A stretch of 53,433 bases of DNA from positions 1 to 53,433 of the forward strand of contig QPGO01000330.1 of NCBI GenBank assembly GCA_008632985.1. Reading direction: 5' to 3'. This document shows, in pieces, positions 2,188-47,499 of this stretch; position 1 is the first letter of the stretch, and each line of letters opens with the position of its first letter. The notes below the pieces were generated by a model. That model made no database searches. It saw only the letters and a program-made list of their open reading frames with translations, and was not told the origin of the DNA. Both the position numbers and the translations under genes were made by a program. The DNA is from Psammoneis japonica (taxonomy: Eukaryota).

Positions 2188-2859
2188 TTTTCATTATACC
2201 TGTCATTTTTTCAGCATGGACATCTAGGACTGCGAGTGCTGAAACTGTCCTTTCATGCCAAAAATCTACATGGCATGAGTCCTTCGTTATTATTTGTTCA
2301 ATTGAGGAATCAAATCCTGAAGGTTTCAGTGTCTAGCAGGGCACAGAGAGGGACGACCAATGGATGTACCGGCACTGCGAGCGCATGCAATGGCTTCACC
2401 ATTGCGACTCATGCATAATAAAGCAGCGGTCTAAATTATATAATGCAGAGCGGGGGTTTTGGGGGGTTACTCTATTCCGTTCGCAAGTGATTGCGATGGT
2501 GGCCATAGAATTTGCCATTGCTCAGGCGGGTATTGCTGCTGCTTCTTTTTCGATTCGCATCATGTAGGTGGGAACTGCCTCCTCTTGTTTTGTGCTGTGC
2601 AAGTAGAGCTTGTGATCTGTTTTGTCATTGTGTTGGTTGCCGGTGGTGGCCTTGTTGGGAGCACAGTGCGATAAAAGGGTGCTCCGGTTGATGCGAATTC
2701 TTGCAGACCGCGTCTCGTCGCAGTTGTCTTTCGACAAACTCAATTGTGTGAGGTTTTGTCTGTTGAGCGCACTCCATCTCCGAACTGTCCATTGAGAAGC
2801 AGCAGCTTCTTCTTGTTGTTACTCATTCTAATGTCACTCACCAACTTGTCTCCTGTAAA

Positions 2860-12000: not shown

Positions 12001-12380
12001 CGTTCCAGGTCCAGGTGGGACCTCGTGCCACTGAACTGTGACATCGACAGTTTTTTGAATCACGTCGCATGTTGCGCACGTAGATTTCTACGTGATTTTT
12101 TCGATGTTTTTTGTCATTTTACGGTGCACTCATTGAGCGATCCGTCCAACAACTTTTGACATTTTTTGTTGCAGCGCAATTCTACAATGTCTTAAGAATC
12201 GCGCAGGGCAGGCGCATTTGCAAAAAAGTCGAGTGGCAAGAGGCACAATTGCACCACAAACTTGGCCGTTTGTTTGATGTTGAAGATGAACACATCCATC
12301 AATTAAATTCTCGTACTGCGGAGCTCGCACGCAGAATTCCACGGGCCCAATGTCACACGGAGTCCCACCTGGGACTGGAA
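12001..12380 (+). repeat. Dispersed ~380 bp repeat, copy A (copy B at 27553-27931)
   Basis: Colinear match from CGTTCCAGGT to CTGGAA; differences are almost all transitions. Confidence 0.9.
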
Positions 12381-13555
12381 CCCGTCGTGCAGGCATGGGC
12401 GCTGTGGATTCAGACTTTGGAGACGATGGCAAATGCCGCGACTTTGGAGGTTTTGATGATGACAGTGGCGACGTGGGCAATGCGGGTGCTCATGCCACAG
12501 ATCTTTCATGACAGGCCTGTGTTTCTTTGTTGGAAGAATCACAGACGGCACGGAGACAATGTTTGCCACCCTGCGCCTTCTGATGCAAAACGAGAGGAGG
12601 AATCGCAATGGAAACGTTGGCAAGACATGCATCAACATTTCACACTGCAGACGCCATCACAATCCCTTGGGCACGGAATTGAGTGCAACCCCAATGACCA
12701 TGTCAAGTGGGACATGCGTTCTAGACAAAAAGCACAGCGACCAATGATGTCAACAGTCTCGACGCCACCGGCACACACGTGCACATTCTCGCCTGCTCGG
12801 AAGCACAATCATCTCGAATCCGTTGGTCATTTGGCGATTGAATCTGCAGCCGCCTCTTCCTGCTCCTGCCGACCCTCAGCCAATGAGGCCTTGCCCTGTC
12901 TTGAGATCCTGCACAGATGTTCGATTTTGAGCGCCCCCTTCACAACAAGAGAAAAGATCTTTTTCGCTTTTCGCTTGGCTCCCAGCTTCTCCTCATTCAA
13001 CATTGCGCGGTCTTTGTCTTGAATCTCGATGAAGCGAGCTCTTGGACCGTTGTCCACGAGACAACCTCTTGCAGCTAAAAGGCAAGGGCATGAGTTGATT
13101 CCGCACCTGCACCCGTTTGTTTGACAATGATGATGCAATGGCCTTCTGTTTTTCCAGCAAATTTAGCTTGCTGGCTCGTTCGTGTGACATCCCAACTCAT
13201 CATCCTGAAATCCTTTGCTTTTGAGAAAAGCTTCCATGTCAGGCACTGAAACCCAGCCATCCTTGTCGGCAACTGTGTCTCTTCGAAATAAATCCTTGTC
13301 AATGCCCAGCTCCTTTCTCATTTCCTCTTCTGGGACCAAGTCACTGGCTGTTGTTGAGCAAGCATCAGGGATGCATGTGGACTTCTTCCCAACGGGAATG
13401 AGGACGCCATCGTCGCGGAGCACTCCTTTCGGCAAAAGCTTGGCTCCACTCTTGGCGTTGTCTCGCTTGAGCTTGCGTCTCATTTTTTGACATGGTCAAC
13501 TCGTTTTCATCGGCTTGCCATCTGTGGCGTCGATTGTTCCACCACCGCGAGTGGC

Positions 13556-14735
13556 TGCCCCATCGTTCGTCGAAACCTGAAAGACAGAAATGCACAAATT
13601 CAACGAGAGAAAATCATCCTTGAAATGAAACCAAGATCCGGGAAATGCACTTGCGCTCTTTTTCGTTCCGTCAATCGCATCCTTTTCCAGGTTTGCAGCG
13701 GCCTCTACATCCCCCCCAGCAAACTCCAATTCGTTGTTGGTGTGGACTGCCGGGTGCCGTTTCGTTTTCGAGTCATCGCTCGCATCCGTTGCCTCCATCA
13801 CGGCGGCATTTGCAATCTCCGTTTCGGTTGTTGGGACGCCTTCAGGGGGGCATTTCTTTCTCGTGTTGCCGCTCGCATCGTCCCCAGTGATTGCAGGGGT
13901 TGCATCAGAGTGAGATCCATTTCTGCGTGTGGCGTGCTTGTCATCTCTGTCATCCGTGGCATCCCCTGTTGCAGCACGAGGTGTCACCAAGGAAGCTCGG
14001 TCTTGTTTGCCAGAACCATGCTTGGCAGAAGGCGCTTCCAAGGAAACTCGACCCCGTTCGAAATGCACGAATTCAACGAGAGAAAATCATCCTTGAAATG
14101 AAACCAAGATCTGGGAAATGGACTTGCACTCTTTTTCGTTCCGTCAATCGCATCCTTTTCCAGGTTTGCAGCGGCCTCTACATCCCCCCCAGCAAACTCC
14201 AATTCGTTGTTGGTGTGGACTGCCGGGTGCCGTTTCGTTTTCGAGTCATCGCTTGCATCCGTTGCCTCCATCACGGCGGCATTTGCAATCTCCGTTTCGG
14301 TCGTTGGGACACCTTCAGGGGGGCATTTCTTTCTCGTGTTGCCGCTCGCATCGTCCCCAGTGATTGCAGGGGTTGCATCAGAGTGAGATCCATTTCTGCG
14401 TGTGGTGTGCTTGTCACAACTCCTCTGTGCCAGCTTTGTCGATTGCAGTGTTGTCGTTGTTCCTGGTTCGAAGGTTGGCGTGAGCAACCGCCCCATCGTT
14501 CATCAAAACCTGAAAGGCAGAAACAACCGAATTCAATGAGAGAACATCATCCTTGAAAAGAAATCAAGATCCGAAATGGACTTGCATTCTTTTTCGTTCC
14601 ATCAATCGCACCCTTTTCTGCGTTTGCAGCGGCCTCTGCACCCCCCCCAGCAAACTCCAATTCGTTGTTGGTGTGGACTGCCAAGTGCCGTTTTGTTTTT
14701 GAGTCGTCGTTTGCATTTGTGGCCTCCATCACGCC
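13556..14735. repeat. Three tandem-arranged copies (13556-13943, 14060-14416, and a more diverged 14488-14735)
   Basis: Copies 1 and 2 are offset by 473 bp and nearly identical. The repeated peptide ATDASDDSKTKRHPAVHTNNELEFAGG appears on the minus strand. Confidence 0.9.
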
Positions 14736-15270
14736 AATGGTGGCAGGCTCAGCGGTGTGCTGGGTGGCTGTGGTGGGCTCTGATGATTCAACAACGGAAA
14801 CTTCGCTTGTTGGCTTGCCAGGTCCACAATCTTCTGGAAATGCATTGCCGTTGTTGCCTGGTTTGACAGATCCGTTGACATCCAGCTGAGTTTTGCCATT
14901 GCTGTCGGGCCCGGAGAAGGAATCAACGCCTGGCATGTTGCACTCTTCAGCGGGTGATCCATCTCGGTTTGAGGGTGGCAGTGTGGCATTGTCCCCTTCA
15001 CGTCCTTCAGCTTTGTCACCCTCTCTCCCAACTGCAGCAGATGCTTTCACTGACAGCGCTCTGCTTGGTTTGCCCGGCAAAACTTCGGCTGGCTCTGGAC
15101 ATCCATTGGAAGCCTCCCTCGGCTTTTCAGTTGTGTTCGCGTCTAGCATGACAACGGTGGCAGCTGCAACATCTTGGCCACGAGAGATCTTCTGTCGTTT
15201 GGTCGTTGTGCGGTCCACAATTCTCTTGATCTCATGTCTCTTGTTTCCGGACAGCCAGACTCCATCCTTC

Positions 15271-15663
15271 NNNNNNNNNNNNNNNNNNNNNNNNNNNNNN
15301 NNNNNNNNNNNNNNNNNNNNNNNNNNNNNNNNNNNNNNNNNNNNNNNNNNNNNNNNNNNNNNNNNNNNNNNNNNNNNNNNNNNNNNNNNNNNNNNNNNNN
15401 NNNNNNNNNNNNNNNNNNNNNNNNNNNNNNNNNNNNNNNNNNNNNNNNNNNNNNNNNNNNNNNNNNNNNNNNNNNNNNNNNNNNNNNNNNNNNNNNNNNN
15501 NNNNNNNNNNNNNNNNNNNNNNNNNNNNNNNNNNNNNNNNNNNNNNNNNNNNNNNNNNNNNNNNNNNNNNNNNNNNNNNNNNNNNNNNNNNNNNNNNNNN
15601 NNNNNNNNNNNNNNNNNNNNNNNNNNNNNNNNNNNNNNNNNNNNNNNNNNNNNNNNNNNNNNN
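15271..15663. other. Assembly gap (N run)
   Basis: Run of N characters. Confidence 1.
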
Positions 15664-18255
15664 TCTCTGAAAACCGGAGCTTTTTGCGTTTCAGTCCCTG
15701 TCACACCCGGTCTGATGCCACTCTTGTTTTCACTGTCCAAAGCCAACAAGGCAGCTTTTCTGCGCCTGTGCCCGGTGAGCAACTTCGAGGGCTGGCACCA
15801 ATTCTTCCGCCATCTCCAAAACGGAACGAGCCCGTCGTGTGCAGTTGGCAGATTTCCATTGTTCGTCTGATGCAGATTCTTCCTCACCGTCTTGATCTCG
15901 TTCAGTTGCTGCTGAGGATTGGCAGCAGGTTGCTTTCGAGGAGCAGAGGGCACAGAGCCACGAGACAACACTTGATGTTGTCTTGGAGGATGTTGATTGC
16001 GGTTGTGGATGCTTCGAAGCGGACCTCCTTGCAAAGAAGAATGCTTCACATTGACCGTCGCAGTTCTGTTCAGTTTGGCGGCAGCAGTGGCACCAGACTG
16101 GTTGCTTGCTGCACGTTCTCTCAACAAACCCGCAATCATTCCATGTGTTTGCTCAAATTGATCCCGGTTTGCTTTTGAATGTTGATGGAGCTGAGGCGGT
16201 TTTTTTGCCGGCGTGTCTGGTGGAACCGTGAACTTCACATCACTCTGCATCTTCCAGTGCTGCAAACTGCAAAGATTGAAACAATGGACATTAGAAGGAT
16301 CGTTGGTCACAGTCAAACATTGTGCGACAAAGCGACTCTTGCCTCAAATGGTGCCGACGGAGACGTGCTTTTAGCTGATGTGTTTCAAAAACCATGCGCG
16401 TCAAGCTGATTTCCCTGCAGTTGTGCACTGCACAAAGAACAACGGCTTCATTAGATGAGAACAAGAAAATCAACGACAAGCATCAAACGTGACAAAGATG
16501 CAAAGAGTCGCACTTGCACTTGCATCAGCAGCAACAACAACGACAACGGCAAAGCGATTTGAGTGTCGTGGTTTTTGTGAGTGAGAGTGAAGATCGTTTG
16601 TGATTGCTGATGAAGCGCTTGGATTCCAACGAACTTTATGACGTCATGGATTTGTGGAAAATGAAGTCATTCAAATGTCAAAACTCTGAGATGTGCACTC
16701 CAGGATGAGCTCCGGTTCGCGGCCGCGGATCGCAAGCGCGCCACTGCGTGAAACACCGCGGTGCTGTTGCGGGGAATTTGATCAAATCTCGCACCAACGA
16801 TGGTGATGATTGCAACGCTAAGAAAGTCATCTAAACCTTCGATTCTGCAAGAACGCATTTGGCACACAATCAATTGGCATCTGTTGGATGGGTGTCTAAA
16901 TGCGTTCTCCACGATTTTGATTTTGTGGCGAGCTGTTGACAAACATGCCGATTCAGTCGTTTGTGATGCCATGTCACGTGCCGAGTCTTCATCAACCACT
17001 CACACGCCAGATTTTCGACACCCGCTGAGTTGAAGCCGGCGGTTGTAAAAAAGCTAAAAAACACAAATCGAAAATGGTGGTTGCACGAGCTTGCATTGGT
17101 TCGTGAAATTGGTGTGGAAGCGACCGCAGAGGAGACGGCAAGGGAGCAGCTGGGAGCAGTCCTGCGGGCAACGCAGGATGGGTTTCCAACATTTTCGTGG
17201 TCGGCGCAACAATGTGGGTCAAAAGAAAACTTCATGAATGTGAATGGAAAGACCGTCAAAGCCAGACCCAGGCATTTCCAATTTGGGGAGAGTCCACTTC
17301 TGATGAGGACTCAGCACTCGACATGTGAGCATGTTCGTGGTCGCAGTCGGTGGATCAACGACCCTGCTGCAAAAGCTCAACGGAGAGGCTGGTTGGCTTG
17401 CTTGGGCACAAGGGGAGTCCACCATGGAAGCCACTCAATTTCAGGAAAAAGATCTGCCGACAATGGCAGAAGGTTTCTTGGATTTTTTTGACCATCCTGA
17501 AGACATGGAGCGTGTTGCAGACGAGCTTCGGACAATTTTGAGGGATGGCAACTTGCTGTTTGAGCCAGACTCAAGCGCCATGGATCTTGATTCTGACAGT
17601 GATGATGCAGGCACCCGTGAAGGCAACAATTTTGTCTCTCCACCACCATCCAAGCGCCCCAGAACTGATGAGGACTCCATCATGGATCAAGACAGACGAC
17701 GAATGCGACAAAGACAGTGGCATCAACCGTGTTGAAGATCCTTGGCTCATGGCACCATTGCGGCAATTGGCAAAGGTTGATTTGAGAGCTTTCTCTGAAC
17801 TGGAATTTATTTTGCTTTCAACAGACCAGAGTGACAGCATTGGAGATGCTGCAGCAATCGTGGAGGCATGCAAGACTGGGGATTTGAGCCATCGTCCGAC
17901 ACCATCCAGCCTCTCGAGACGATGTCTGTTTTCAAGCTTCAGGCCTCCAGAAGGATCATTGAGACTGTTCGTGGTGAATTTGTGGCAACCCAGCAATGTT
18001 TCGAACCTTCTGACGATGAACCACTGATTGATTGGCTTGATCAAGTCAAGCAATTTGCAGAAGGCGAGCGATGCGGAGACTGCCACCAATGCGGCGACTG
18101 CGAGTGATGCAGAGAGTCGAGTGAGAGCTTCCTCGAAAAAAACTTCAATCGACTTCAGAATGGCATGTAAAGCATCAAGGACAGAGCAGCACAAGTCGTC
18201 CGACACGTTCGCCATTGCCACAACATTTGCTTGTCAAGAATGGGTGGGTTGCTGA

Positions 18256-19995
18256 ATGCGCTCGCCCCATCATTCCTTCGGAGAGCTCTCAAGGAAGAAG
18301 AGTTTACGTCGGAGTCGACAACTCGAAATCGTGTGCAGCGTCTTGACCCTGATTGACACTTTCCGCCTGAGACGCAATTTCCAAAAGCACTCGATGGTTC
18401 AAGATGAATGCGGCAATGACATCATGATTTACAGTTGTGACGACGACTCTACATTTCATGGTGGCAAGCGTCATGTGCTGTTCGTGACGGCGAACTCAGA
18501 GGACAAGACACCAAAATTCCATCTTGTGACGACATCGGCTTCCGTGTCAGCGGATGGTGACGGCAACTCTGATCTCAATGTCAAAGCATTGACAGATCTT
18601 TTTGGAGAAGAGAATGCCCCTCAGTTCTTCCAACACTTTGGTGGAGGATGCTCCGACAATGCTCCTGACGCCTTGGAAACAACGCAAAAAAGTTTTGAAA
18701 AGGCCACGCGCCTTGTCCCGGAAGAGGCGTGCCTGTTGAATGGTGTCACCAGACGGGCCATTGTTTGGGGCGACCCCTTTCACATTGCGAACTTGGTGGT
18801 CATGTGGGCGTCTCTCGCTGCCTTTGGAGAAACCGACCGCACCAACCATCAAGAAGTCCATCACCGACAACCAACGCAGTCATTTTTTGATGCTCTGAAG
18901 GGGAACAGAGGCCTTGCATGTTCTGTTGCAATGGAAATCTGCAAGGAGCATGACTTGCCAACAGTCGTTCCCAAAGCGGCAAGAGAGCGCCAACAATGAT
19001 GGTGTGTCAACCAATGTCAATGCAAACACTTGTTGGAATTGCATGACATGCAGTGTGGCGATGCAAGTTTCTTTCTCCTTTTTTGCAAAGAAATGGCAAA
19101 ACATTCAGGAGGACATCAAAGCGACGCAATGGAACACTGCGGCACGTTGACGAGCATGCCCAAAATTCGACTTGCTCTTCAATTTGAAGCAGAGCTTGGA
19201 TGTTTCTTTGAGCCTGTCATGGCGTGGCACTCCCGCACCGGTTTGATCGCGAACGTTCCTGGCTTTCGTGTGCTAGAAGTCCACGCCTTCTTTTTCAACT
19301 TTGAGCTGCCATTTTGGAAAAAAGCACGAGTCGAGCCAGCCAAAGCATTCCCCAAGACGTTTGCCAGGCTGTCAGAAATTGAAGATGAAGCGGCAAGAGA
19401 TGTGAAACGAGATCATGTCGTCTCTGGTGGCATTGAAGCTGGGTGCAAAGAACCAATCAAGATGACGAGGCACCATTTCAGCCCGTCCAACATGTTTTTG
19501 GTCCTTGTTGCTGAGCACGCACAATGTTTTGCTCGCGTGTCACTCCGGTTCCTCCGTGAACATTCCGACAACTTGCGATTTGCCGTGGAGGATGCGGGTG
19601 TGTCACAATTTGATGAGCCAGCAGGGCTTGAAGATGAGTTTGCCAAGTTGCTGGAGGTCGACATTGATGGCGTCATTCATTGTCTTCAGCAACTCGGGTT
19701 GTCAAAGCATCGCGCTTTTTCCAAAATCAAGAAGCTCTCATTGGATGAAGAAAACACCGGCCACCTTTTGGATTTTAAGGAGGCACATCCAGCCATGTTC
19801 ACGACATTGCATTCCACATTTGGGCTCTTGCCATCAGCAAGTTGCCCAGCGGAGCAAACGATGGCGATGCTCCGAGGGCATCTTGGACTCAAGACTGCAA
19901 CTTCATCGCACACGAGCACAGACCAACGCCAGCGGCATTTGATGAATGTTGAGCATGACAACCGAGTGGCAAGGCGGAAGAATGTTGAGAACTGA
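18256..19995 (+). mobile_element. Degenerate hAT-like DDE transposase
   Basis: Motif order DDDSTFHG ... GGGCSDNA ... DPFHIANL ... QQ*W (RW with CGA->TGA) ... LLPSASCPAEQTM resembles hAT D, D(N/G)A, CxxH..L, TRW and P.S...ER motifs. Confidence 0.6.
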
Positions 19996-21036
19996 CATGA
20001 CAAACGCCCAACCAGTGGTTTCAAGCATGAGAAAAGCAAGTTGGAGCAGCGAATGGTTGGGGAGCAAATGATGGAGTCAATGGGTGGATGCGAGGACGAA
20101 GTGTTGGCTGAAGAGCTGACCAAAGCTGAATTTGACAGCATCAAAACAAGACACTTGAATGACAAGGGCATCATGGGGAAAGACAAAGCATGGATTGAAG
20201 CCCAAAATGCGAGGGCTCTAGAGAAGGCAGCCCGAAAAAAAAAAAGCCCAGCAAGACGGTGATCGATTTTGAGACTGAAGGCTCGGAAGAAACTGTGGAC
20301 AACGACGAGAGCTGGGCTGCATTCGAGCAAGCCGAGCTCAACAAACGTCGCAAGGAGCTTGCCACCCAAGCCTTTTGGGCAAGAGCCAGTCACTGCAAGA
20401 CATTCTCATGGTGTGCCAAGAAGTCTTTCCAGGGATGCAAAAGCTTCAACCAGGCGGCAGGGGGAAGCTCACCAAGCAAGACGGGCATGAAAGCTCTGAC
20501 AAAAGATTGGCTGTCTGCTGAAGGAGCTGCTGCAAAAATGAACACAGCTGCTGCAGCTGGACTTGAGCATAAAAAGTCTGAGTCCAGCGCAGCGAAGCAG
20601 AAAGAGGCAATGCGGGGTTTGTTTGATGTGGCTGGGTCGGAAATTGGCCAGCACCACTTTGAAGCTTGCAGCAGTGCACGACACTGTGCTGTGTTTGCTT
20701 GGCATGAATCACATGCAATCCTGATGGCATGTGTTGCTTCTCCCCAATCACTGGTCGTGTGCTCAGTGAACACTCGTGGGAAGGATGAGATTCGAAGTTG
20801 GGTGATGTGGGGCAGGTCGTTTCGGAACGAAAAATGTCCATTTTGTTTTCACAAAGCATGGCCTGTCGAGCTGCAATGAGTGCACCATGATCTTAGGATT
20901 GCAAACTGTCATAAATGTTGCCCTTGCTAATCACCTCTACTCTAGAGCAGTGGGCCCTCTAGAGATTAGAGCATGCCGCAACGTTCCTGTTGTCCGCAAC
21001 GCCTGTAGAAATGGCACGAGCGGGCGTGCAAGTTTT

Positions 21037-21096
21037 ACTCGTGACTTCGAATCACGAGTCGAGAATGTATGTTGACTCATTCGATTGAATGAGTCA
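21037..21096. promoter_or_regulatory. Two adjacent perfect palindromic stems: ACTCGTGA-7nt-TCACGAGT and TGACTCATTC-4nt-GAATGAGTCA
   Basis: Inverted repeats at 21037-21059 and 21073-21096. Their regulatory function is only inferred. Confidence 0.5.
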
Positions 21097-22213
21097 CGAC
21101 TCGGGAATGAAAATGGATCCATTCGACTAGAATTTATGAAACTAAAAATGGTTAGACTTTGACCCCCCACTCGAGACAGAAATGCACAAGATGTGAACCT
21201 TATCGGTCTCCTGCCCTTTAAAACAATGTCTTGCGAGAATAGAATAGCCATGTATTGTTCATGGTGTCAGGTATTTGAAAATGGAACTAACTTTTCGCGG
21301 AGCACCTTTGTTGCACGTGAAAGTGCGAGGGACGATTTTTGGTGATGGCTCTGCTGCACAACTAACGCAACCTTCTACTTGCGACCCCAAAAGTTGTTGG
21401 GAACTCTGCATCAGCAAGAAAGCAGGTATCATGTAGTTAATGCAGTCGTACGAATGAGGGGTGGTTGTCACGCGCAAGAGATTGCAGGCTGTGCGCGCGA
21501 AATTTGAAACAGTTGTGGCACCGTTTTCGGGGTGGTGGTGGGTTTTTGTCAACTTCTAGGCATGACATCGATGTTGTAGGTGGATGGTCGGTTGGCATGT
21601 TGTCTGGAAGGGTGCGAATCGCATGACATCAGTCGGCTGGAAATGCATTTTGGAAAAAAATGGGGGGTGTGTGATCACACGTGGAAGCATGACGTTGGGC
21701 CCCATGGCAGCGCCGAGCCGCCGCAGGCCTGGCATGTTGACGTCATGCGCACATTTGCACGAGAACAATTCGTAAAAAACAACAAGTCCCGTGACGTCAC
21801 CACTGCAAAATTGTTGCGCGACGAGCCGAAGGAGTTTCATGTGTGCGACCATGATGAAACGCTGCGATTCTGGCGGCAACACGCAAGCTTGTTCCCAGCA
21901 ATGCATTGTGGCACTGCCATGTGTTCTTTCCTCAATTGCAGCACACAACTTTTTTGGATGAAAACAGTTCAAAACATCTTGTTTTCGGCTTGCAAACCTG
22001 AGGACGCGTGCAAGATCCCACTTGTTCAAGTTGAAGTTGCATCTGGATGGAAGTTCCAGTCGACCGAATTTCCGTGCTTTAATGCATTTGGACCTGATGA
22101 TGCTTTGAACTTGTTTTGAAGAGAAGCATCGCAAAATTTGGACGAGAGCATCACTTTGATGCTTCCGATCATGACACGGGTGCCGGTGCATGCCTTGTGA
22201 GGTGAGCACTCGA

Positions 22214-22582
22214 TGCCGTGGGTGAGTGTGTCTGACCGCATGTGTGTCCTGTTCATGTTTGTCAGAGTTCTTCAGAATGTTTCCCGAACACCACAAGTCT
22301 GTTCAATGACTTGTTCCAACAACGTCAAGTCTTTCCAATGACTTGTTCCGAACAACAAATGTTTCCAATGACTTGTCACATGTGAGAAGAGCTCGGGTTT
22401 CTCTGTGCTTCAAGTGCTGCGTTCTGTCTAAAAATTTCTACGTGATCTCCGACAGACTGACTCTAGAGATCCTCTCCTCTGACTTTGCTCACAATTCATC
22501 TGTGAACCCAAATTGCTGCAAGCACATCTCGTCTGTCAAACTGTCAACCACTTTGTCAACTGTCATCTGGCGCCATTGGACA
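22214..22582 (+). repeat. 5' LTR (contains three internal CAATGACTTGT repeats)
   Basis: Ungapped alignment to 24481-24849, about 91% identical by manual count. Confidence 0.9.
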
Positions 22583-24480
22583 CATCAAATTTACTCCCCG
22601 TTTCCAAACACCTTGTCCTTTGCTTCCACGAAGCCCCTGACATTTACAGCAAGTTCTGCGAATTGTCCTGACCAGCCATGTCAGCCGAAAACTGTCCTTT
22701 CCATCTTGTTCGCTCCAAACGAACATGTGAAGAATGTCGCAAAGATCGTTTTGTGTCGTTCGAGTCTCCACTTGACCCAAATGACCCTGAAGGTCTCAAG
22801 TCTGCCATGGAAGTGTGCACGTTAGATGCCGAAGACCCTGAAGACACTCTTGCTTTCTTCAAGCGATTAGAAGAAGTTTCTGTCATTCTCAGTGTTGCAG
22901 AAGGAATCCCACGTTTCCGTCCAATCGACCGCCCATTGACAGGCCAGCCGATGGATGACTGGACTGCCATCATCGATGAATGCGAAGATTGAGATCAAGA
23001 CACTTTTTTTGCAGCATGTGAGGAACATCTTTTAACCAAGATGACCCGTGACATTGCGGTGGACACCAAAGATTGGTTGCAGTCCCTCAAGAAACCACGC
23101 AATGAGACCGCACAGTTGTTTCTCCAACACATCCATCAGATCAATGACCTCATTCCATTCATGCCATTGCCCGCGGATGAAGAAGACGCACAGCCCATTC
23201 CCAAGTTTGCGGAAGCGGAGTTGTCTGTCATCATCTGGAAAGCTTGTCCCAAATCCTGGAAAAACTCTCAAGTCCGTGCAAATCTACAAGGACTCAATCT
23301 CCGCAAGCAAGTCTCATGCTGCGAAAGTCTGCGCAACATTGACAACTCAGAATCATTTTTGCTGCCTTGTCAAAACCATGATGCAACCGCACAGCAATCC
23401 AAAACAGAATCAAGCAGCAAGAATCAGCAAGCCTTGCAACAAAAATCCAACTCCAACTCGAGTTCCCAAACAAACAACACATGTCCCATCCATGGAGCAG
23501 TCCATCCAAATGGACAAGAATGCAATGTCATTCGCTGTGAGCGAGAAATCTGCCAGCAGCGACGTCAACAAAGGCCCCAACGTGTCCAATCCTCAGAAAA
23601 CAATGGCCCAGACAACCAAACTCGGAGCCAGCCGCAACAGCAGCCAACTCATCGCTGCAACCTGCGCAGCAGAAGCAACCAACAAAGAAACAATGAAAAC
23701 AATGCGATGGAAGATCCTTCCAGCACCCACAATGATCCCCCAGAAGATCTTGGAAGCATGCCATCCGAAACCATCAACGAAATCTACAATCTTCATGATG
23801 AAATCAACGAGATTGAAAGTCAGAATGCTCAAGAATCTCAACAAAATGTCAGCGCAGATGTGCAAGTTCAACTTGCCTCGTCCTCTGCCTCTCATGCAGA
23901 GCAAGCACTCGGTCTCCTCGACTCTGGAGCCAACAACAACTGCACCAAGCGCGAAGCCCTTGAAAAAATCTCCCATCAAATCAAGCCAATTTCCACACCG
24001 GTGCAAAGCCGCTGCAAGTCAGCTCAAGTTCAGAACAAGGCAGCATTCAACATGACATTGCCTGAATTTTCTCAATCGAAGCCCATTGCCATTGAAGCGC
24101 ACATCGAAGACGGTGCAATTGGTCATCGTGCCATTGTTGTCGGTCGCCAAACGTGCAAACAACTCGACATTGTTCTGGATTTCACGACTGCCATGATGAC
24201 CTGTGGCAACGTCACCATCCCTGTGAAAACAGAAAACAAGACTCAACATGCCACCTGTGAAGACTGGCGTCACATCAATCGAAAACATCAAAACGTCCAA
24301 CTTCAAGTTGCGCCTCTGCAAGTCGGCTCAAGCCCAAATTTCATCCTGCCAATCGTTCCAAGTCCAAATTTAACTTTGCCAACGGTGCAGTCACCATCCA
24401 GCGCTCTTCTGACGTCACCGAATGGATCAATCTCCATCATCATCACCCTGAATTCTAGCCTGCCCAGTTGGGGAAGCAAG

Positions 24481-24849
24481 TGCCATGGGCGAGTGTGTCT
24501 GACCGCATGTGTGTCCTGTTCATGTTCATCAGAGTTCTTCAGAATGTTTCCCGAACACCACAAGTCTTTTCAATGACTTGTTTCAACAACGTTGAGTCTT
24601 TCCAATGACTTGTTCCAAACAACAAATGTCTCCAATGACTTGTCGTGTGTGAGAAGAACTCGGGTTTCTCCGTGCTTCAAGTGCTGCGTTCTGTCCACAA
24701 ATTTCTACGTGATCTCCGACAGACCAGCTCCAGAGATCCTCTCCTCTAACTTTGCTCACAACTCGTCTGTGAACCCAAATCACTGCGAGCACATCTCGTC
24801 TGTCAAACTGTCAACTGCTTCATCAACTGTCACCTGGCACCATTGGACA
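24481..24849 (+). repeat. 3' LTR
   Basis: Ungapped alignment to 22214-22582; preceded by a polypurine tract and followed by the TSD. Confidence 0.9.
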
Positions 24850-27552
24850 CTTGATGGCAGGCTTCACAACGTTTTCTTTTGTTTTGCTCACAAAATCTGT
24901 TGTTTTCGACTTCTTTGTTGTCAGGGTGAACACTTCTAGCCTCTTGTTGTAGAAAGAACAAGAATCAGAAGAGTTCTGCAGGCCAAAGGGAGCACTTCAA
25001 TCTCAATTTTTGACGCGTCCGCGGCGCGAGTCATTCGAGGGCTGGTTGCATCACATCGACCGCTGTTGTTCCAAGAGAGCCTCTCATTTTCAAGCTGAAC
25101 ATTGCGCCTTTGACACTTTAAAGGATCTTTGTGTAAAGAAACGGATCAAAGGTGCACTGTCATCTTGCAAAAGTCGATCAGACTCGATTGTTTGTGCAGT
25201 GGCGGGAACGGCACATGCTCGGACAGAGACGTCCATCGCCCAGGTCAGATGCACTCCAAAACACAGTCTCTAACATCAGCAACATTTCTGTCAGAACACT
25301 CAAGCATCAATTGCAGAATTGGCCTCACAGCAGGTCGCGCTCAGCTCTGCGACAATCCCAGACCCAATCTGATGCAATCGAAGCGCGCAACGAGTGCTGA
25401 GGCAATGCAATGGCTTAGACAACCAAGGTTGAGAGCCCCAGAAGACTGGCTCAGGCATGTTTTGCATCAACAGTGGAGTGACAACGGCCACAACATTGCT
25501 GGAAGAGCTTCTTGTGTTTGTTTGGTGGATGAGCCGGATGCATCAAATGTCTCCAGTCGAACAGCTTCCGGCATCTCAAGCCCTTGAACAACTTTGTCAT
25601 TTGTTCCAACCACCCATTGTCATTGCCATGGACCACTCATGGCAAGAAACAGATGAATTCACAACGATGCATGATGAACATTGTTGCATTCCGAGTCGAT
25701 TTGGTTGTCACGTGGGGGCTGGCAAACTGTTTCAAAGTGGACATGTGTTTGTTTCTGCTCACATGATTCCACCCAAGAAAGCGAATCCATCCATGCCACC
25801 ATTTTTGTTGAATCGATCAATGAACACAAGTGCTCTGGCATGTGCTTTGGTCGGAGAGACCTTTGAAACCTTTGCTGGACTCTGGTGGATGGAGGCAACA
25901 ACAATGAAAACGCATGAGAAGCAGCAATGTGAAAAAAAAGCATCTCAAGGACACAATCGAGCAGGAATCTCCATGACACATGCTCCCAGTCAGGTGTGAA
26001 AGGACTCTCCAGATGAGATTCCTGCTCGATTTTCAATGTCAACGCCGCCGCAAATGATGTTCCTGGTTCTTGGTTCTTGATCGATGTCTTTTTTTCTCGC
26101 GCAAAAAGCACGAAGATTTTCAGATGGCGGACGAGCGCGCCAAAAGACATTTTAGTCGAACGACTCATGCGGTCCCTCCATGTGCATTCACAGGGCCAGA
26201 CATTTTCTGTGACATGCCAAATCAGAGGGACAGCACACCCAATGTCAGAGGGACATGACAAGCGTGCAACTGCCACACACAGACACATGAACACCGAAGG
26301 ACGACACATTCAAAACTGAGGGACACGACACCACAACAATCACACCTCACACACACCAATGCTCAACGCTTCCAACGCTGCAACACAATGAGACACAACA
26401 TCACATCATGTTGCCGGTGCTGTGTGTCTGAACAACTGCAACATGCACAGAGCTGTGACACTGTGTTTTGTGGATGACTTTGTGTGGTCAACCCACCTTT
26501 TGACAGGGCTGCGCAGGTGCATTCCAAGAAAGACATTCGAGCCAGTGGACTTCGAGGTCCCAGACCACAGGCTCCGGCAACAAAAAATGAGTGTTGTTTT
26601 GTTTGTGTTGACACAATGTCGGCATTGCTGCCATCGTGTCCCGATTCATGTAAAAAAAAAAACAAGGCATTCTCTGTTGCAATGTGTGTCCTTGCACTGC
26701 TTCATTTTTCCCGCCATCTTGTTGAATTTGCTGCAGCAATCAATGGGTGCGTGCAAAAATGATGCCGGCATGATGCCGGTGTGATTTGTTCGGTGGCATT
26801 TATTTTCTCAATCTGTTGTTTTGCTTTGATCTTTGTTTGCTCTCCTGCAGAAAATCAAGATGCTTTGTGACTCCAAGAGATTGGTGTCGCGGGTGTTGAG
26901 TGCAGAGTGATGAGTGTTGGCAATGAGTGGGATGACATGTGATGCCATGTCATGTGTCATGTGCAGGGCGGCTTGAGCTGGTGCAGCACCAGCGTCATGC
27001 TGGGTGGCTCAATGTGAGAAGGAGCATTCTTTGTTGCACTTTGCAATCTCTGTCACTTTTGGAAAAGTCCCAAAACATGGGCAGACAAGGATCATGTCTC
27101 CAAATGACTCAAGTGTCTGCTGAGGATGCTGCTTGCAGCTGTGGCTCCTTGGTGATCCCACCTTCTGCATGGGCTGTTTTGATGAGAGCAAAAGGATTGC
27201 ATCCTGGGGGGTGATTGGGCACCTCCAGCACACGGGCGCCTGGCCATCTTTTTTGAAGGAGCCAAGAGTGTTGACGACCTCCCAAGTCTTGTTGCTTGTT
27301 TGTTTGCATTGCTTCTTCCTTTGGATGAAACGATTGCAAGACATGTGTTTGTGCAATGCTTGCAATGCTTTGAGCCCCACAGATGATCAAGCAAACAGAG
27401 ATGTCAGCTCAGTCGCTCAGTCGGACATGGAGTCTTGTTGATGTGGGTGGTGGTGTGTTGGGCACTTTGTTGGAGCAAGCATGAGTTGCCCGAGGCAGCA
27501 GTGAAGGCAATGGTGGTTTTGTTGAAGGGAGGTGCCAGGGGCTTGGCCGACG

Positions 27553-27931
27553 CGTTCCAGGTCTGGGTGGGACCTCGCACCACTGAGCTGTGACATCGAC
27601 AGTTTTTTGAATCGCGTCGCATGTCACGCACACAGATTTCTGCATGATTTTTGTGATGTTTTGTGTCATTTTACGGCACACTCATTGAGTGATCTGTCCA
27701 ACAACTTTTGACATTTTTTGTTGCAGCACGATTCTACAATGTCTTGAGAGTCACACAGGGCAGGCGCGTTTGCAAAAACGTTGAGTGGCAAGAGGCACAA
27801 TTGCACCACAAACTTGGCTGTTTGTTTGATGTTGAAGACAAACACATCCATCAATTGAGCTCTTGTGCTGCAGAGGTCGCACACAGAATTCCACGGGCCC
27901 ATGTTGCATGGAGTCCCGCCCAGGGCTGGAA
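27553..27931 (+). repeat. Dispersed ~380 bp repeat, copy B (copy A at 12001-12380)
   Basis: Colinear match to copy A, with further loss of TA and CG. Confidence 0.9.
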
Positions 27932-30900
27932 TGCGTTGGCCGCACTTTGCACAGATGGATTTTTGGTTGTGGCAGCAGTGCTGGGTGGGTGTCTGTGCAG
28001 GACTTGTTGGCATCAGATGTTGGGTGGAGGGAGGTGTGTGCAGCATTCAGCATGGCAGCATTTGTGTCAGCACAGGTGGCATCATTGACGGCGATGTTGG
28101 TGCAGGCAGCATCGTTGTCTCTGGATTTGGAGCAGCAGGCAATTCGGTCAGCGGCACTGGCGCAAGGTGGGAGGGAGAGTTAGATTTGGTGTGGTGGTGG
28201 CATTGGGTGGCTGTCTGTGTGGAGTTTGGTGTTGGAAGCAGACAGAATGAATGACCCGCTGGTTTTCTTAGAAGCAGCTTGAACGCTGCAGTGTGCTTCA
28301 TGCAAAACCAGGGCACCTGATCATTTTAGGAGTGTGGGTTGGTCACACGGACTTGTTGTCTCAGCTGCAACTGCCTGCTTCTGCTTCTGTCAATGTGTGC
28401 AACAGAGAGGTGCAATCCAAACGGCAAGGTGTGAAACACATCAAGAGTGCCCTGCAACACTGTCATGGATTGACTTGGTGTCACCATTGCAAAATGTGAG
28501 AGTGCGTCATTTGTGCCACACCAAGAAGATTGATGATGACATTCAAGGCAGTCTAGATGACACATTTCCAAAATGACATGATTGAAGACTTGCAAACACA
28601 GTCAAGATGCACTTGTTTGTAAAAAGGAAATGCCTTGATCTGTTGATTCTCAAGGCATGACAACCACAACAATGTGAGTGGCTGGTGCAAACAGCGATGC
28701 TGTTGGCTCCAACACTTCCAGCCCTCTGCTGGCATGCTGGCAGGCTTCTGTTGCAAATCCAGCAAAAGGAGTCATGGTCAATTTGCAGCCATTGTTCTTC
28801 TTAAAACCATTCAATGTGTGTGTCAACAATGGGAGAACCTCTTGTGATGGGGTCTTTGGCTTGTCACTCGCACTCTGGTGGAGGCATCAAATGGCACAAA
28901 ATGAGGGTGAGTCACTCAAATGCAAAAACATGGCTCAAATGGAGTTTGGGAAGTGGAGTCGCCATGCAGAAACCTTCTCATGGGTGCAAGGAAGACATTC
29001 ATGCCCTGACTCCACTTCCCATGTCAACATTGATGCCGCCACAATTGATGTGCTCGTCACGGTGGGACTGTGTGTTTTGCCACACAGGAGTTTCAGAAGG
29101 GCGGACAAACATCGGGCAGAGCATTTGAGCCAAAGCATTCAAGCCACAAGGTCCCTCCAGCCACGCATTCACAGGGCCTTTCACAGGGCCTTTCACATGG
29201 TGGGGGCCCAAAGTCAAGGGACGCGAGCAATGCTCCCCCAAAAAATTTTCATGCAGTGGTGCACGTGCTCAAAAGCACAGCAAGGGGGCACAGCACAGGT
29301 GCCTCATGCGGCACAGCACATGCAACAAGCGCTTCTCATTTGCAAGAAAAAGCAAAAGCACATGAAACCACAATGCTGCACTCCGCCACACCCACAGGTG
29401 AATGTGGAGGCTTGTGCCTGCATCTCAAAGCCCAAGCTTTGGAAGAGACAATTCAGCCAATGCCGGTGGAGACTTTTTTGCACCTTGCTCTTGAACAACA
29501 GCAGAGCACATGCCGCAAGCAACATCAACAAGACAGGTTGCACCCGCCTTGCTCAAGACTGAGTCTCTTTGCTCCAGAGTCTGTGGAAACAAGCAGAAGC
29601 AACACAGCAACCCGGGCCCATCTTGGCTTTTGCCATGCCACTGCAGGATCAAGATTGTCGCCAGCCTGCGCCATTGTCATGACAAGCACACTGTGGTTGA
29701 GACCATTGACACTGTGGATGGTGTCTTGGACACGAGTGGGGGATGACAGAAGTGACTGCTTTTAGCCATCGCATGTCTGTGTGAACATTTCACAGAAGCA
29801 GCCAGTGCTGCAACAATGGCAGCCATGACGTGCAGCAGGTTGCTCCTGTCGGATGACTTGACTCATTCTCAGCAACATCTGTCCCATGACCGGTGCCGCA
29901 GCCACGCCGCTTGACCTGCACAGCGCTGCCAACATCTCTCCCAAGATTGTGCAACACAGGCTGCAAAAGGAGCACCTGCATCACGAACAACTCAACACCA
30001 TTGACTGCACTTCACTGGTGGATCAACCTCGCCGCAAGCTCTGCATCGTTGATGAAATTGAAAGCCTCGAGAGATTTGAGTCAGAGCACAGACTTTGACA
30101 AACACACCCGCGCATGTGGGCCCCAAGAGCACATGGACGAACTGGAGCGTGAAGTGCCAGACGTGCAAGAGGAAGCCAAGCTGGACCTTGAAGCTCAAGC
30201 AGAAGCAAGCATGCTCAAGATTGGCTGAGGTGATGTTGAAACGAGCCAACGAAATGCATCGACGCACAAATGAAATGGACGTCAAGATGCCATGACCAGA
30301 CGTTGGCATGGAACAGCACAGCAGGAGTCGTTCACAACAACCTGCAGTGCGTGCTTTTTCTTTTCATCGCTTTTGCCTTTTGCGTGGTGCAGCGTGCACC
30401 AAGTGAGCACCTTTGTCACATTCTGTGGTGTTGTCGTCACTGTTGAAAGGAGCGCCAGTGCAATGGACTGCACTTGCCAAGCAACTTGCGGTGGGATTCC
30501 AAGCTGCTTCCGTGTGACATTGCCAACAACAATCTCAATCGTGTCATGTTTGGATCCAATTCCACCAACTGGATCAGAATTTCTTCCCAAGATCTTTTCC
30601 ACCACATGGCATGCGTGGTTCTCCGCCACTTGTCCAAATGCTTGCAGCTGTGCTCCAAAGTGAAATTGCCATTTGATGATGGCACATGTCAACCTTGACA
30701 ACTCTTGTCGGTGGGGCCAGCTGTCATGTGTTGGTTTGGTTGCATGTGCTCTCCAAGGCGCAGCAGAAGTCTTGTCGAGAAAGCCCAACCAAGGCCCTTC
30801 GTTTTTGCTTTTGTCCACAAGCACCAGCAGAGCCATGCTTCACGCTGACACAAGTGCAGCACGCTTGATGTGGCTTGAATCCAATGAACCTGCATGTCAC

Positions 30901-31731
30901 GAAATCAACTTCAAAGCAATGTGCTCCAATCCAGCCGATGGCGATGTGGAGCGCAAAGGCGTGGTCTTGCTTTGAGCGGCACTTCCTGGTTTGAAAGGGA
31001 GCTCTGTTTCCTTCACTCTGGTGGACCGCCAGCACTCAACCAAAATGGTCGGTTCACGTCTGGCCTCTCCAACACTGCCGAAGGCTCAAGAAAAAGTTCA
31101 ACAGCATGAACAAGTTCAGCGTGAATCTCGGAGGAAGCACAGAGTCCAGTTTCTAGAAGCTGTGCTGCCTCACATCCATGAGATGGCACAACATGCCGGT
31201 GCTGACAACTGCAAGGTCTCAGATCTGCTGACATCTTGATCTGGCTGTTCTTTCTCAAATGAAATGAAAGCATCATCATCATCATCATCTCCCTCGATTT
31301 TCCACCGGCACACTGAAGAACACGAGAAACCTCCGGATTTTTTCGAGTGTGCAATTGAAGGCGCTGCATGTTTGAAATGCATGATGCGATTTATGTGGTT
31401 CAACAATGATGTAGACCGCGGCAATGACAATGTCATTTGCAGTCTTCAGGAAAGAATGAATCTGAAAACACACTGACGATGTTGTGCAAAGCGCAGGCAA
31501 ATTCGCGCGATTGGAGCTCATAACCCATTTGGTGACCACACGACAGTGCCAGGTGCTCTGGAATGATTTCCCACCCTGGTTCGCCCCTCGCTAGAATTCG
31601 TCTGCATGGACCACTGGAAAGTTCAGTTTGCAGGATAACAACAGTGTGAGTGAGCAACAAGCAACAGAATTGATTGTTTCGGTCCAGACAATGCTTCGTC
31701 GTACCTGGACCCAATCGCAGCTCCAATCTGT

Positions 31732-36468: not shown

Positions 36469-36619
36469 GATGGGAGAGATAGCTTGTGTTGCTGCGAGGT
36501 TTTCTTTTGTGCTACTTGGTGTTGCGGTGTGGTAGAAGTAGACAGTGCCGCACTTCTAGAGTTTGGAGTGTGCTGTGATGCTGTGTGCTTCCAAAATTCC
36601 AAAGTACTCTGTAGTTTCA

Positions 36620-47374: not shown

Positions 47375-47499
47375 GTCGCTGCTGTTTTCGCTGCACGTCG
47401 TTCACTTCCTTAAGAACGCTCGCCGCTCGCCGCTCGCCATCGCATGTACAGCATGAATAATGACGACGACTCGGCCTCCGCTTTATTCGGGTAATGAGC

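Follow-up and report, generated by a model that had tools for sequence, protein, structure and literature searches.

Post-integration erosion of TA and CG dinucleotides on both strands of an LTR-retrotransposon remnant in the diatom Psammoneis japonica

Introduction

The two LTRs of a retrotransposon remnant in the diatom Psammoneis japonica differ from each other almost entirely by transitions, and in several columns one LTR has TG where the other has CA (referred to below as swaps). This locus raises the question of whether these differences arose in the chromosomal DNA after integration or were already present in an RNA or cDNA intermediate, and of whether the swaps derive from an ancestral TA or from an ancestral CG. 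The initial annotation of the locus had interpreted the differences as mutations that took place after integration, independently in each LTR and on both strands. In the present work, we have analyzed the 53,433-nt stretch of DNA that holds the element (the window) together with contigs from public sequencing runs, protein relatives of the element and the published literature, and our results support this overall interpretation.

Structure of the Element and Its Relatives

The element, all parts of which are given here on the + strand, begins with a 5' LTR of 369 nt (22214..22582) that has TG...CA termini and in which 3 TA and 11 CG remain, and ends with a 3' LTR of the same length (24481..24849) in which 2 TA and 13 CG remain; both were delimited by a repeat search and MAFFT alignment. 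The LTRs are bordered by a left TSD copy, CTCGA (22209..22213), and a right copy, CTTGA (24850..24854), both of which were read from the sequence; the right copy departs from the left by one CG>TG change. CTCGA is likewise present in an empty-site paralogue among the run contigs (joint 22213>24872), and contigs of flank paralogues without the element provide four joints in run X1 (22210-22215 > 24869-24872).

The internal region of 1898 nt (22583..24480) consists of a gag-like and protease-like remnant without RT or integrase. The upstream part of the gag-like frame (22672..22992) encodes 106 aa, none of them Tyr, and is ended by an in-frame TGA at 22990-22992. It is followed by a gag-like and protease-like frame of 496 aa (22993..24480), which stays open until 24576, within the 3' LTR, and in which the D-S-G of the protease-like region occupies 23920-23928. 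A polypurine-like run, GGGGAAGCAAG (24470..24480), also read from the sequence, adjoins the 3' LTR.

The paired TG...CA LTRs, the short TSD and the polypurine tract are features of Ty3/gypsy LTR retrotransposons. The pol order of this group (protease, RVT_1, RNase H, integrase) is not seen, since neither RT nor integrase was found in the frames of the internal region or by Pfam, and Pfam RVP gave only a sub-threshold match on the element protein, located elsewhere than the D-S-G region. A representative protein library contains 91 relatives of the internal region at 20-50% identity. One of these, P0043, has the region matching the gag/protease-like frame upstream of RVT_1, and through this relative the element may be placed, indirectly, as a Ty3/gypsy-type remnant. 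Three other genomic copies in the run contigs diverge from the element upstream of 24377, which fits an internal deletion in the element copy, and this copy appears to be an internally deleted remnant that has lost its pol.

Within the 53,433-nt window there are no further copies of the LTR pair, and a self-BLAST of the window returned 6 other repeat pairs, 0 of them of this LTR family. Searches of the protein database at near lengths found no copies of the gag-PR frame and likewise none of the LTR-spanning frame. As the relatives in the representative library do not exceed 50% identity, these collections contain no copies of this family; protein copies could in any case have revealed no more than 2 of the 7 swap columns. 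A degenerate 39-nt LTR pattern had 0 matches in metagenome contigs, and a protein-guided scan of these contigs yielded 84 pattern stretches, 0 of which were confirmed by tblastn.

Differences Between the Two LTRs

A MAFFT alignment of the two LTRs (22214-22582 and 24481-24849) has no gaps, and a script count over its 369 positions gave 33 differences, viz. 31 transitions and 2 transversions, the latter at LTR positions 88 and 218. The approximate count of 33 differences with only 2 transversions given in the initial annotation thus proved exact, and the example strings quoted there are all present in the alignment. The recount also returned the numbers it had reported for each class: 7 swaps (LTR positions 47-48, 113-114, 166-167, 245-246, 301-302, 336-337, and 341-342), 8 sites with CG in one LTR and TG or CA in the other (positions 5, 10, 137, 165, 191, 285, 307, and 359), and 3 sites with TA against CA or TG (positions 216, 251, and 268). 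Altogether, 25 of the 31 transitions lie within CG, TG, CA, or TA steps and the other 6 lie outside these contexts, and the states common to both LTRs include 8 CG/CG and 1 TA/TA. All four TA steps that survive in either LTR are preceded by C, and steps in this CTA context belong to a class that is seldom hit. When 31 transitions were placed randomly on the 5' LTR in 100,000 trials, the mean number of swaps was 0.51 and the maximum 5, and 0 trials reached 7. The public-run contigs show 0 differences from the window over 22271-22676 and 23964-24220, and the window sequence is therefore no assembly artefact. A two-base inversion (TG being the reverse complement of CA) was also considered as a source of the swaps and was rejected, as no plausible mechanism would produce it at 7 sites.

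The K2P distance between the LTRs is 0.098 when all sites are counted and 0.033 when Y-R steps are left out, and the divergence outside the affected contexts is 0.032 per position, or ~0.016 per copy. The expectation that dating by LTR divergence would overestimate the age of this element is borne out by these distances, the inflation being about threefold.

Timing and Strand of the Changes

TA and CG are palindromic, so that each hit on such a step falls on either strand at random, and a column hit in both LTRs consequently ends as a swap half of the time. Both strands have indeed been used, as had been proposed: TG and CA outcomes occur within each LTR, the swap columns of the 5' LTR comprising 4 TG and 3 CA, and changes of CG>CA and CG>TG occur in the ratio 6:2. 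During LTR synthesis, both LTRs inherit any change in the RNA or in the early cDNA. RNA editing, or deamination of reverse-transcription intermediates, would for this reason leave changes that are common to both LTRs and biased toward one strand, and the dismissal of RNA editing and reverse-transcription error in the initial annotation, which rested on this argument, is sound. Although the cDNA of vertebrate LTR retrotransposons is well known to undergo APOBEC-type editing (PMC4866542), the presence of both outcomes in each LTR is at odds with the strand bias expected of a single-stranded intermediate, and erosion extends to the TSD and to flanks outside the element; a pre-integration origin of the differences is thus extremely improbable.

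The mutations occurred in place after integration, as the TG...CA termini, the polypurine run and a 5-bp TSD that itself differs by one CG>TG change attest: the pair CTCGA/CTTGA marks a single insertion, and the changes have therefore arisen in place. Other genomic copies retain TA or CG where the element has TG/CA, and the flanks are eroded likewise. It may still be asked whether the LTRs were ever identical at this site, for in a recombinant of diverged copies, or in an element with a gene-converted LTR, the differences would be polymorphisms of the family. Several other family copies exist at 80-99% identity, and paralogous repeat pairs elsewhere in the window differ in the same ways, as such an origin would allow. 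However, the matching TSD, with its copies one CG>TG apart, argues for a single insertion, and this origin, which we consider improbable, would affect only the post-insertion timing, since the differences would still represent DNA-level erosion of TA and CG in a chromosomal copy.

Erosion of TA and CG in the Window

TA is scarce throughout the element, with rho(TA) values of 0.08-0.11 for the LTRs and 0.07 for the internal region (22583..24480; 9 TA); the value for gene-bearing DNA of the same window (17.9 kb) is 0.59. For rho(CG), the values are 0.59-0.67 in the LTRs, 0.73 in the internal region and 0.65 in the repeat blocks vs. 0.95 in genic DNA. The element lies within a TA-depleted block (21500..31600, no strand assigned) in which rho(TA) per 500 bp is 0.0-0.13. 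Five such blocks are present in the window, the others at ~2.7-4.5, 5.5-20.7, 36.6-39.4, and 47.4-50.0 kb, and in the 500-bp map all of their edges are sharp against gene-bearing DNA with rho(TA) of ~0.6. TA is still present in islands at 4.5-5.5 and 20.9-21.5 kb, which may be young insertions. The regions of the kinase, MAGE, and NuA4 genes have rho(TA) of 0.4-0.9 and the repeat blocks 0.0-0.13; TpA erosion is restricted to foreign or repeat-derived DNA, and the host genes alongside it are unaffected. Pfam searches with 12 long frames of the eroded blocks gave the host kinase as the only match. A relative of this kinase at 80% identity is named from Amphora coffeiformis.

The density of TA falls from 41.1 to 3.36 per kb, a 12-fold depletion, TG and CA are enriched, and the G+C of the TA-depleted blocks (~0.47-0.53) is like that of genes. 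For the window outside the element, the gain of TG+CA (57.35 per kb) balances the loss of TA+CG (57.51 per kb), and a fraction of 0.918 of the TA and of 0.364 of the CG has been lost. The rate of CpG loss was estimated in three ways, viz. 0.34 from the single LTR sites, 3 of 8 from Arg columns and 0.364 from the domain. The survival of TA depends on its flanks, amounting to 1.6% at ATA/TAT vs. 29% at YTAR. A strand rule, under which the A of 5'-TAT-3' would be the preferred target, gave the right direction at 1 of 3 informative hand-read sites and was discarded.

Polarity in Protein Relatives and Other Genomic Copies

The coding part of the element reveals the direction of TA loss. Tyr accounts for 1 of the 496 residues of the gag/protease-like frame, vs. 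2.8% in the 91 relatives, and in the 6 columns where at least 30% of the relatives have Tyr the element has TGC four times, CAC once, TTC once, and Tyr in none. Five of these 6 columns, together with the 3 LTR sites of TA against CA or TG, exhibit the A>G/T>C change of TpA to TpG or CpA that defines TpA-type hypermutation; the polarity of this change is based on protein relatives, other copies and composition rather than on de novo events. Where Arg is conserved (8 columns), CGN is retained in 5 columns and CAN is found in 3, and these 3, the 8 LTR sites, the TSD and the loss fraction of 0.364 display the CpG>TpG/CpA change and the CpG depletion that are characteristic of methyl-CpG decay. Cytosine methylation in the repeat block would be the expected cause of this decay.

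A total of 191 run contigs were aligned to the stretch, 44 of them at ≥99% identity and 65 under 90%; runs X2 and X3 contain next to nothing of the stretch. The variant evidence comes from the best-supported 40 of 402 variant places and from 11 of ~211 contig pieces. At these best-supported 40 of 402 places, other copies have TA at 9 and CG at 7 where the element has TG/CA. Column 301-302 is the sole swap column with a read-out from other copies, which is partial and leans toward TA: 4 of 5 contigs have T at 24781, and the rows listed include none with A>G at 24782. In an older repeat of the flank, two swap columns have CG in a third copy, the window reading TTCACAACG, one paralogue TTTGTGACA and another TTCGCGGCA, and hence CpG-derived swaps do occur in the window. 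Parsimony was uninformative at columns 164-168 and 244-248, where TA and CG ancestry each need three steps; by hand reasoning, known contexts account for all three steps at 164-168, and at 244-248 one of the steps has to be out of context under either ancestry.

Origin of the Swaps

The initial annotation had named TA (or CG) as the ancestor of the swaps, and this is right as a mixture. The numbers expected in the LTRs were predicted without any fit to the LTRs themselves, from the loss fractions and background densities of the rest of the window, and on the assumption that the LTR began at host-genic dinucleotide density and that all erosion was post-insertion. This gives 0.10 TA/TA, 2.27 TA/x, 8.08 CG/CG, 9.25 CG/x, and 7.70 swaps, the observed numbers being 1, 3, 8, 8, and 7, respectively. 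The 7.70 swaps are made up of 6.38 from TA and 1.32 from CG, and with flank-specific rates 4.5-5.3 of the 7 swaps would be TA-derived. When the swaps are reverted to TA and 7 hidden same-direction hits are added, rho(TA) becomes 0.61 and rho(CG) 0.89, for a background of 0.59 and 0.95; reversion to CG instead gives 0.17 and 1.30.

The swaps could be due to CpG decay only, if all 7 columns were CG at insertion in an element that was already TA-poor and methyl-cytosines were deaminated on opposite strands. The 8 single sites of CG against TG/CA, the CG>TG change in the TSD, the rho(CG) of the LTRs and the CG-derived swaps of the flank repeat all accord with such decay, and heterogeneous CpG rates, with some sites never methylated and some hypermutable, can fit the ratio 8:8:7 without TA. 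The LTR class counts are weak evidence by themselves: under flat priors and homogeneous rates, CG-derived swaps have a posterior mean share of 0.34, all 7 come from CG with a probability of 0.05, and a model with swaps only from CG is disfavored by a likelihood ratio of 8:1. However, CpG loss at the rate measured locally predicts only 1.0-1.4 swaps, with P(7 or more) of 8e-5 to 7e-4, and this account needs the ancestral LTR composition obtained above by reversion to CG, which is unlike the background. It also leaves out the 3 differences of TA against TG/CA, which are TA changes after insertion, the 9 places (of the best-supported 40 of 402) where other copies have TA, and the T in 4 of 5 contigs at column 301. 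It is thus unlikely that all swap columns were ancestrally CG.

A swap may also arise by two successive changes in one copy, the other keeping the ancestral TG/CA, when an ordinary CA>TA transition is followed by TA>TG. A TA formed in this way would itself be exposed to the process that removes ~92% of TA, and from the divergence of 0.032 and the ~70 TG/CA steps per LTR a rough yield of ~1 swap can be derived. This is ~1 and not 7, and the route still requires the TpA process; as the general source of the swaps it is very improbable, and it would be a minor contributing route. A mixed origin from TA and CG is the one that we favor: as modelled, TA would account for about 4.5-6.4 of the 7 swaps and CG for 1-2, and one may have arisen by two successive changes.

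Comparison with Known Systems

Mutation-accumulation lines of Bigelowiella natans have provided a direct measurement of TpA>TpG/CpA mutation (Mettrop et al., bioRxiv 2026, 10.64898/2026.01.13.699255). According to this preprint, TpA hypermutation affects integrated NCLDV and virophage DNA, and TpA-poor coding sequences show an enrichment of reverse-transcriptase and DDE domains (10.64898/2026.01.13.699255). As described there, the B. natans process resembles that in Psammoneis japonica in that A:T>G:C occurs only at TpA, on either strand and local to foreign-derived DNA, and in that TpA depletion and CpA+TpG enrichment occur in clusters. The two cases also differ: erosion is deeper here (rho(TA) of 0.0-0.13 vs. 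0.45 for the B. natans NCLDV region), CpG decay is superimposed here, whereas the word "CpG" does not occur in the accessible preprint text, and the strong flank bias (1.6% at ATA/TAT vs. 29% at YTAR) has no counterpart in that text, which is without the words "context," "flanking," and "trinucleotide." The B. natans rate, as reported, comes from mutation-accumulation lines, whereas the erosion here is read from sequence only. The host here is a diatom, and thus a stramenopile, and not a chlorarachniophyte, and the DNA affected comprises an LTR retrotransposon together with its repeat block.

RIP, known from Neurospora and other fungi, changes CpA to TpA and thereby enriches TA and lowers G+C in repeats. 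The process described here is like RIP in being a DNA-level transition hypermutation of dinucleotides that disables repeated or foreign DNA in place, acts on both strands and inflates LTR divergence. Its direction is the opposite, however: instead of C>T at CpA or another CpN, TpA enrichment and a drop in G+C, TA is erased, being depleted 12-fold, and G+C is not lowered. RIP is also cited as a comparison in the B. natans preprint (10.64898/2026.01.13.699255). Methyl-CpG decay, which is relevant as diatoms have been reported to methylate transposon DNA (PMC9998398), shares with the present case the CG>TG/CA changes on both strands (8 LTR sites and one TSD site). It covers only part of the data, and TA loss, the Tyr>Cys/His columns and most of the swaps are left over. 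A likeness to APOBEC (C>U) editing of vertebrate LTR retrotransposons and endogenous retroviruses lies in the record of deaminase-type hypermutation in LTR elements; that editing acts on minus-strand cDNA before integration and gives strand-biased G>A changes common to both LTRs. The differences in the present LTR pair, in contrast, are post-integration, strand-symmetric and largely A:T>G:C. Full-text literature searches found no description of the TpA signature in diatoms, and within the scope of these searches it has been published only in the one 2026 preprint, on the unrelated alga B. natans.

Proposed Course of Events

The observations are best explained by a single insertion followed by fast TpA and slower CpG erosion, a reading that we hold to be probable. 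Under this scenario, a Ty3/gypsy-type remnant (gag-like and protease-like, with pol deleted) would have inserted once into an older repeat, with two identical 369-nt LTRs, and two strand-symmetric processes of transition, each specific to one dinucleotide and both ending in TG/CA, would afterwards have rewritten the chromosomal DNA of the whole repeat block. The faster process, TpA>TpG/CpA (A:T>G:C), would have removed ~90% of TA, with ATA/TAT contexts affected worst; the slower, CpG>TpG/CpA, would have removed ~35% of CG, as is to be expected where silenced transposon DNA carries methylated CpG. The faster process may have consisted of the deamination of adenine to inosine in DNA, aimed at silenced or foreign DNA, as has been proposed for B. 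natans. This chemistry is suggested by analogy and is put forward tentatively, as somewhat short of an even chance; leaving it aside, the remainder of the explanation is probable.

Significance

The LTR pair constitutes a natural before/after experiment, in which two once-identical sequences lie 2.3 kb apart in the same chromatin. It indicates that TA erosion of repeats in Psammoneis japonica is a process of chromosomal DNA that takes place after integration, independently in each copy and on either strand, by which RNA editing and reverse-transcription error are excluded as its source. The pair also provides relative rates, with a TpA loss of ~0.9 per site, a CpG loss of ~0.35 and a change of 0.03 between the LTRs at other positions, and it implies that LTR-divergence dating is inflated in such genomes. 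It is an evenly balanced question whether diatoms carry a hitherto undescribed genome-defence mutator that acts on integrated, chromosomal transposon DNA and deaminates adenine at TpA on both strands, preferring A/T flanks, at the rates calibrated by this LTR pair. As part of the same reading, such a mutator would be ~5-6x faster per target step than methyl-CpG decay and roughly 60-80x faster than background, and it would saturate within the time that an LTR pair needs for 3% divergence elsewhere. If the process is an enzymatic deamination of DNA adenine, it would represent a natural TpA-directed DNA adenine editor of relevance to both genome defence and base editing.

Structure of the LTR element and its surroundings

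The window is eukaryotic DNA and contains genes for a protein kinase (262–2187), a MAGE/Nse3 protein (35422–36555, minus strand) and a NuA4/Eaf6-type protein (45304–46245, minus strand); the kinase has one relative, at 80% identity, which is named in UniRef from the diatom Amphora coffeiformis. The LTR element spans 2636 bp (22214–24849) and is bounded by direct repeats of 369 nt each with TG...CA termini (22214–22582 and 24481–24849), with the purine run GGGGAAGCAAG immediately 5' of the 3' LTR (24470–24480) and a 5 bp target-site duplication (TSD; CTCGA at 22209–22213, CTTGA at 24850–24854). Its 1898 nt interior holds a gag-like and protease-like frame (D-S-G at 23920–23928) which is broken by an in-frame TGA (22990–22992) and unrecognised by Pfam at its thresholds; neither reverse transcriptase nor integrase was found in the interior by examination of its frames and Pfam. 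Among 1.84 billion representative proteins this frame has 91 relatives (20–50% identity), one of which (P0043) carries an RVT_1 domain downstream of the matching region. This is the Ty3/gypsy gene order, which indirectly suggests a Ty3/gypsy placement, and the element is accordingly an internally deleted remnant. At 24202–24204 the element has Cys (TGT) where 21 of 21 relatives carry Trp, a G>T transversion outside both of the transition processes considered here.

Contigs from a public sequencing run bear out the window sequence (0 differences in 22271–22676 and 23964–24220), and they include several further genomic copies of the element family as well as paralogues of the flanking repeat that are without the element. 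Four contigs of run X1 are more diverged empty-site paralogues of this repeat, and one low-depth contig of run X2 (depth 6.7) joining 22100–22203 to 24927–24950 (24 letters on the short side, 2723 bases skipped) may be an element-free allele or a close paralogue. Over 24538–24812, the run's own 3' LTR contig shows 3 differences in 275 positions, including CG>CA at 24672, which could reflect a haplotype or assembly polish difference.

Differences between the two LTRs

Our comparison of the 5' and 3' LTRs has identified 33 differing columns out of 369 (31 transitions and 2 transversions), and the counts of the initial annotation were exact when recounted from the alignment. The transitions form 7 swaps (TG in one LTR and CA in the other), 8 sites of CG versus TG/CA, 3 sites of TA versus TG/CA and 6 changes outside these contexts; the steps common to both LTRs are 8 CG and 1 TA. 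When 31 transitions were placed at random, the mean number of swaps was 0.51 and none of 100,000 trials reached 7. A second dispersed repeat pair (27548–27931 and 11996–12380; 87.5% identity, 43 transitions, 4 transversions) falls into these classes too, with 7 swaps, 19 CG-versus-TG/CA and 5 TA-versus-TG/CA sites, and an overlapping tandem-like repeat (13587–14733; 85.6% identity over 695 columns) has unusually many transversions (40 of 85 differences).

Both LTRs of an element derive from a single template and start out identical at integration. The TSD copies differ by one CG>TG step, one flank paralogue still reading CTCGA, and they mark a single insertion event. Both outcomes occur in each LTR (the 5' LTR has TG at 4 and CA at 3 swap columns), CG>CA and CG>TG stand at 6:2 among the CG-derived differences, and the flanks outside the element show the same kind of erosion. 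The initial identity of the LTRs, the single TSD, the presence of both outcomes in each LTR and the eroded flanks together indicate that the changes were made in place, which bears out the earlier proposal that they arose in chromosomal DNA, after integration and on both strands.

Erosion of TpA and CpG

The element lies in one of five near-TA-free blocks, in which rho(TA), the dinucleotide representation, is 0.0–0.13 in 500-bp windows and whose edges are sharp against genic DNA (rho(TA) ~0.6). Outside the element, TA has fallen from 41.1 to 3.36 per kb (loss fraction 0.918) and CG from 54.3 to 34.5 per kb (0.364), and the gain of TG+CA (57.35 per kb) balances the loss of TA+CG (57.51 per kb). 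Within the element, comparison with its relatives and other copies shows that the TA loss is derived rather than primitive: Tyr makes up 1 of 496 residues versus 2.8% in relatives, the six Tyr-conserved columns are occupied by TGC (4), CAC (1) and TTC (1), and other genomic copies have TA at 9 places with TG/CA here (best 40 of 402 variant places). CpG decay is likewise shown by CGN to CAN changes in 3 of 8 Arg-conserved columns and by CG in other copies at 7 places with TG/CA here (same 40 of 402). Among the same best 40 of 402 places there are also some at which it is the element that still has CG (6 places) or TA (1 place) and most other copies that carry TG/CA, which indicates independent erosion of all copies rather than a simple one-way picture.

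TA survival in all eroded blocks depends on the flanking bases: 1.6% in ATA/TAT (n = 9 surviving), 7.8% in TAC/GTA (n = 35) and 29% in YTAR contexts (n = 55), and all 4 TA steps left in either LTR are CTA-type. Since TAA and TAG are almost impossible without TA, long open frames occur on both strands, even through the LTRs (e.g., 22310–22825 and 23045–24055), and gene prediction there would yield too many proteins. The eroded domain also contains a 393-N assembly gap (15271–15663) and, 0.7 kb upstream of the element, a normal-TA island (20890–21470; 20 TA and rho 0.55 in 21001–21500) with a palindrome around 21040–21110. This island may have inserted recently enough to escape erosion, or its sequence may be protected. 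Another normal-TA island is located at 4501–5500.

Ancestry of the swap columns

The initial annotation had read each swap as an ancestral TA (or CG) resolved independently in each copy. Three independent estimates of the CpG loss rate, viz. 0.34 (LTR singles), 3/8 (Arg columns) and 0.364 (domain), lead to just 1.0–1.4 expected CG-derived swaps, the probability of 7 or more being 8e-5 to 7e-4. A prediction from nothing but the background densities and the domain-wide losses of TA and CG, with a host-like starting composition assumed, gives TA/TA 0.10, TA/x 2.27, CG/CG 8.08, CG/x 9.25 and 7.70 swaps (6.38 from TA and 1.32 from CG), and the observed classes are 1, 3, 8, 8 and 7, respectively; with flank-specific rates, 4.5–5.3 of the 7 swaps are TA-derived. 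Reverting the swaps to TA, and allowing for as many hidden hits in the same direction, gives LTR rho(TA) 0.61 and rho(CG) 0.89, against a background of 0.59 and 0.95, whereas reversion to CG gives 0.17 and 1.30.

Heterogeneous CpG rates could mimic the swap pattern, and two swap columns of the older flank repeat are CG in a third copy; the LTR counts alone, a weak guide, yield a posterior mean CG share of 0.34 and a probability of 0.05 that all swaps came from CG. By rough estimate, ~1 swap may have come from a sequential route, CA>TA>TG in a single copy. Direct read-out from other copies is partial and confined to LTR column 301–302, where T is present at 24781 in 4 of 5 contigs and no A>G is seen at 24782 among the best 40 of 402 variant places, so that its ancestry leans to TA. 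In our reading the swaps are probably of mixed origin, with 4–6 from TA, 1–2 from CG and 0–1 by the sequential route.

Relative rates and LTR dating

Differences between the LTRs number 27 in the 180 Y-R-step positions versus 6 in the other 189, and the K2P distance is 0.098 overall versus 0.033 outside Y-R steps. As had been anticipated, LTR-divergence dating therefore overestimates age here, by about threefold. Arithmetic conversion of the loss fractions and outside-context divergence gives ~2.0–2.5 hits for TpA steps, ~0.45 for CpG steps and, per copy, ~0.016 for each other position, making the TpA process ~5–6 times faster than CpG decay here. The block map is consistent with this, with TA close to zero everywhere and rho(CG) anywhere from 0.0 to 1.17 between and within blocks. 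With TA near zero throughout, rho(CG) is 0.0–0.3 in 2700–4500, 36600–39400 and 47400–50000 versus 0.55–1.17 in 12000–20000, which points to TA erosion as the first to saturate and to CpG decay as an indicator of age or methylation level.

Mechanism and significance

The process works on DNA that is already integrated, at specific dinucleotides, on either strand and in confined blocks. The CpG part would be methyl-cytosine deamination. The TpA part matches a signature already known from one preprint on an unrelated lineage, Bigelowiella natans. It was measured there in mutation-accumulation lines: of the new mutations arising in two integrated viral regions, 210 of 211 and 20 of 20 were A>G or T>C and every one of these lay at TpA, for which the authors put forward an ADAT2-like DNA adenine deaminase (10.64898/2026.01.13.699255). 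The words "context", "flanking" and "trinucleotide" are absent from the preprint text (10.64898/2026.01.13.699255). By analogy, DNA adenine deamination might also be the TpA chemistry here, to which we give slightly less than an even chance; a modified thymine that then mispairs would be a candidate alternative.

Our full-text literature search found no description of the TpA signature in diatoms. To what is known, the LTR pair adds a clear case of changes made in place, independently in each LTR and on both strands; it shows that CpG decay runs alongside, and at what relative speed, and it accounts for the swaps in quantitative terms.
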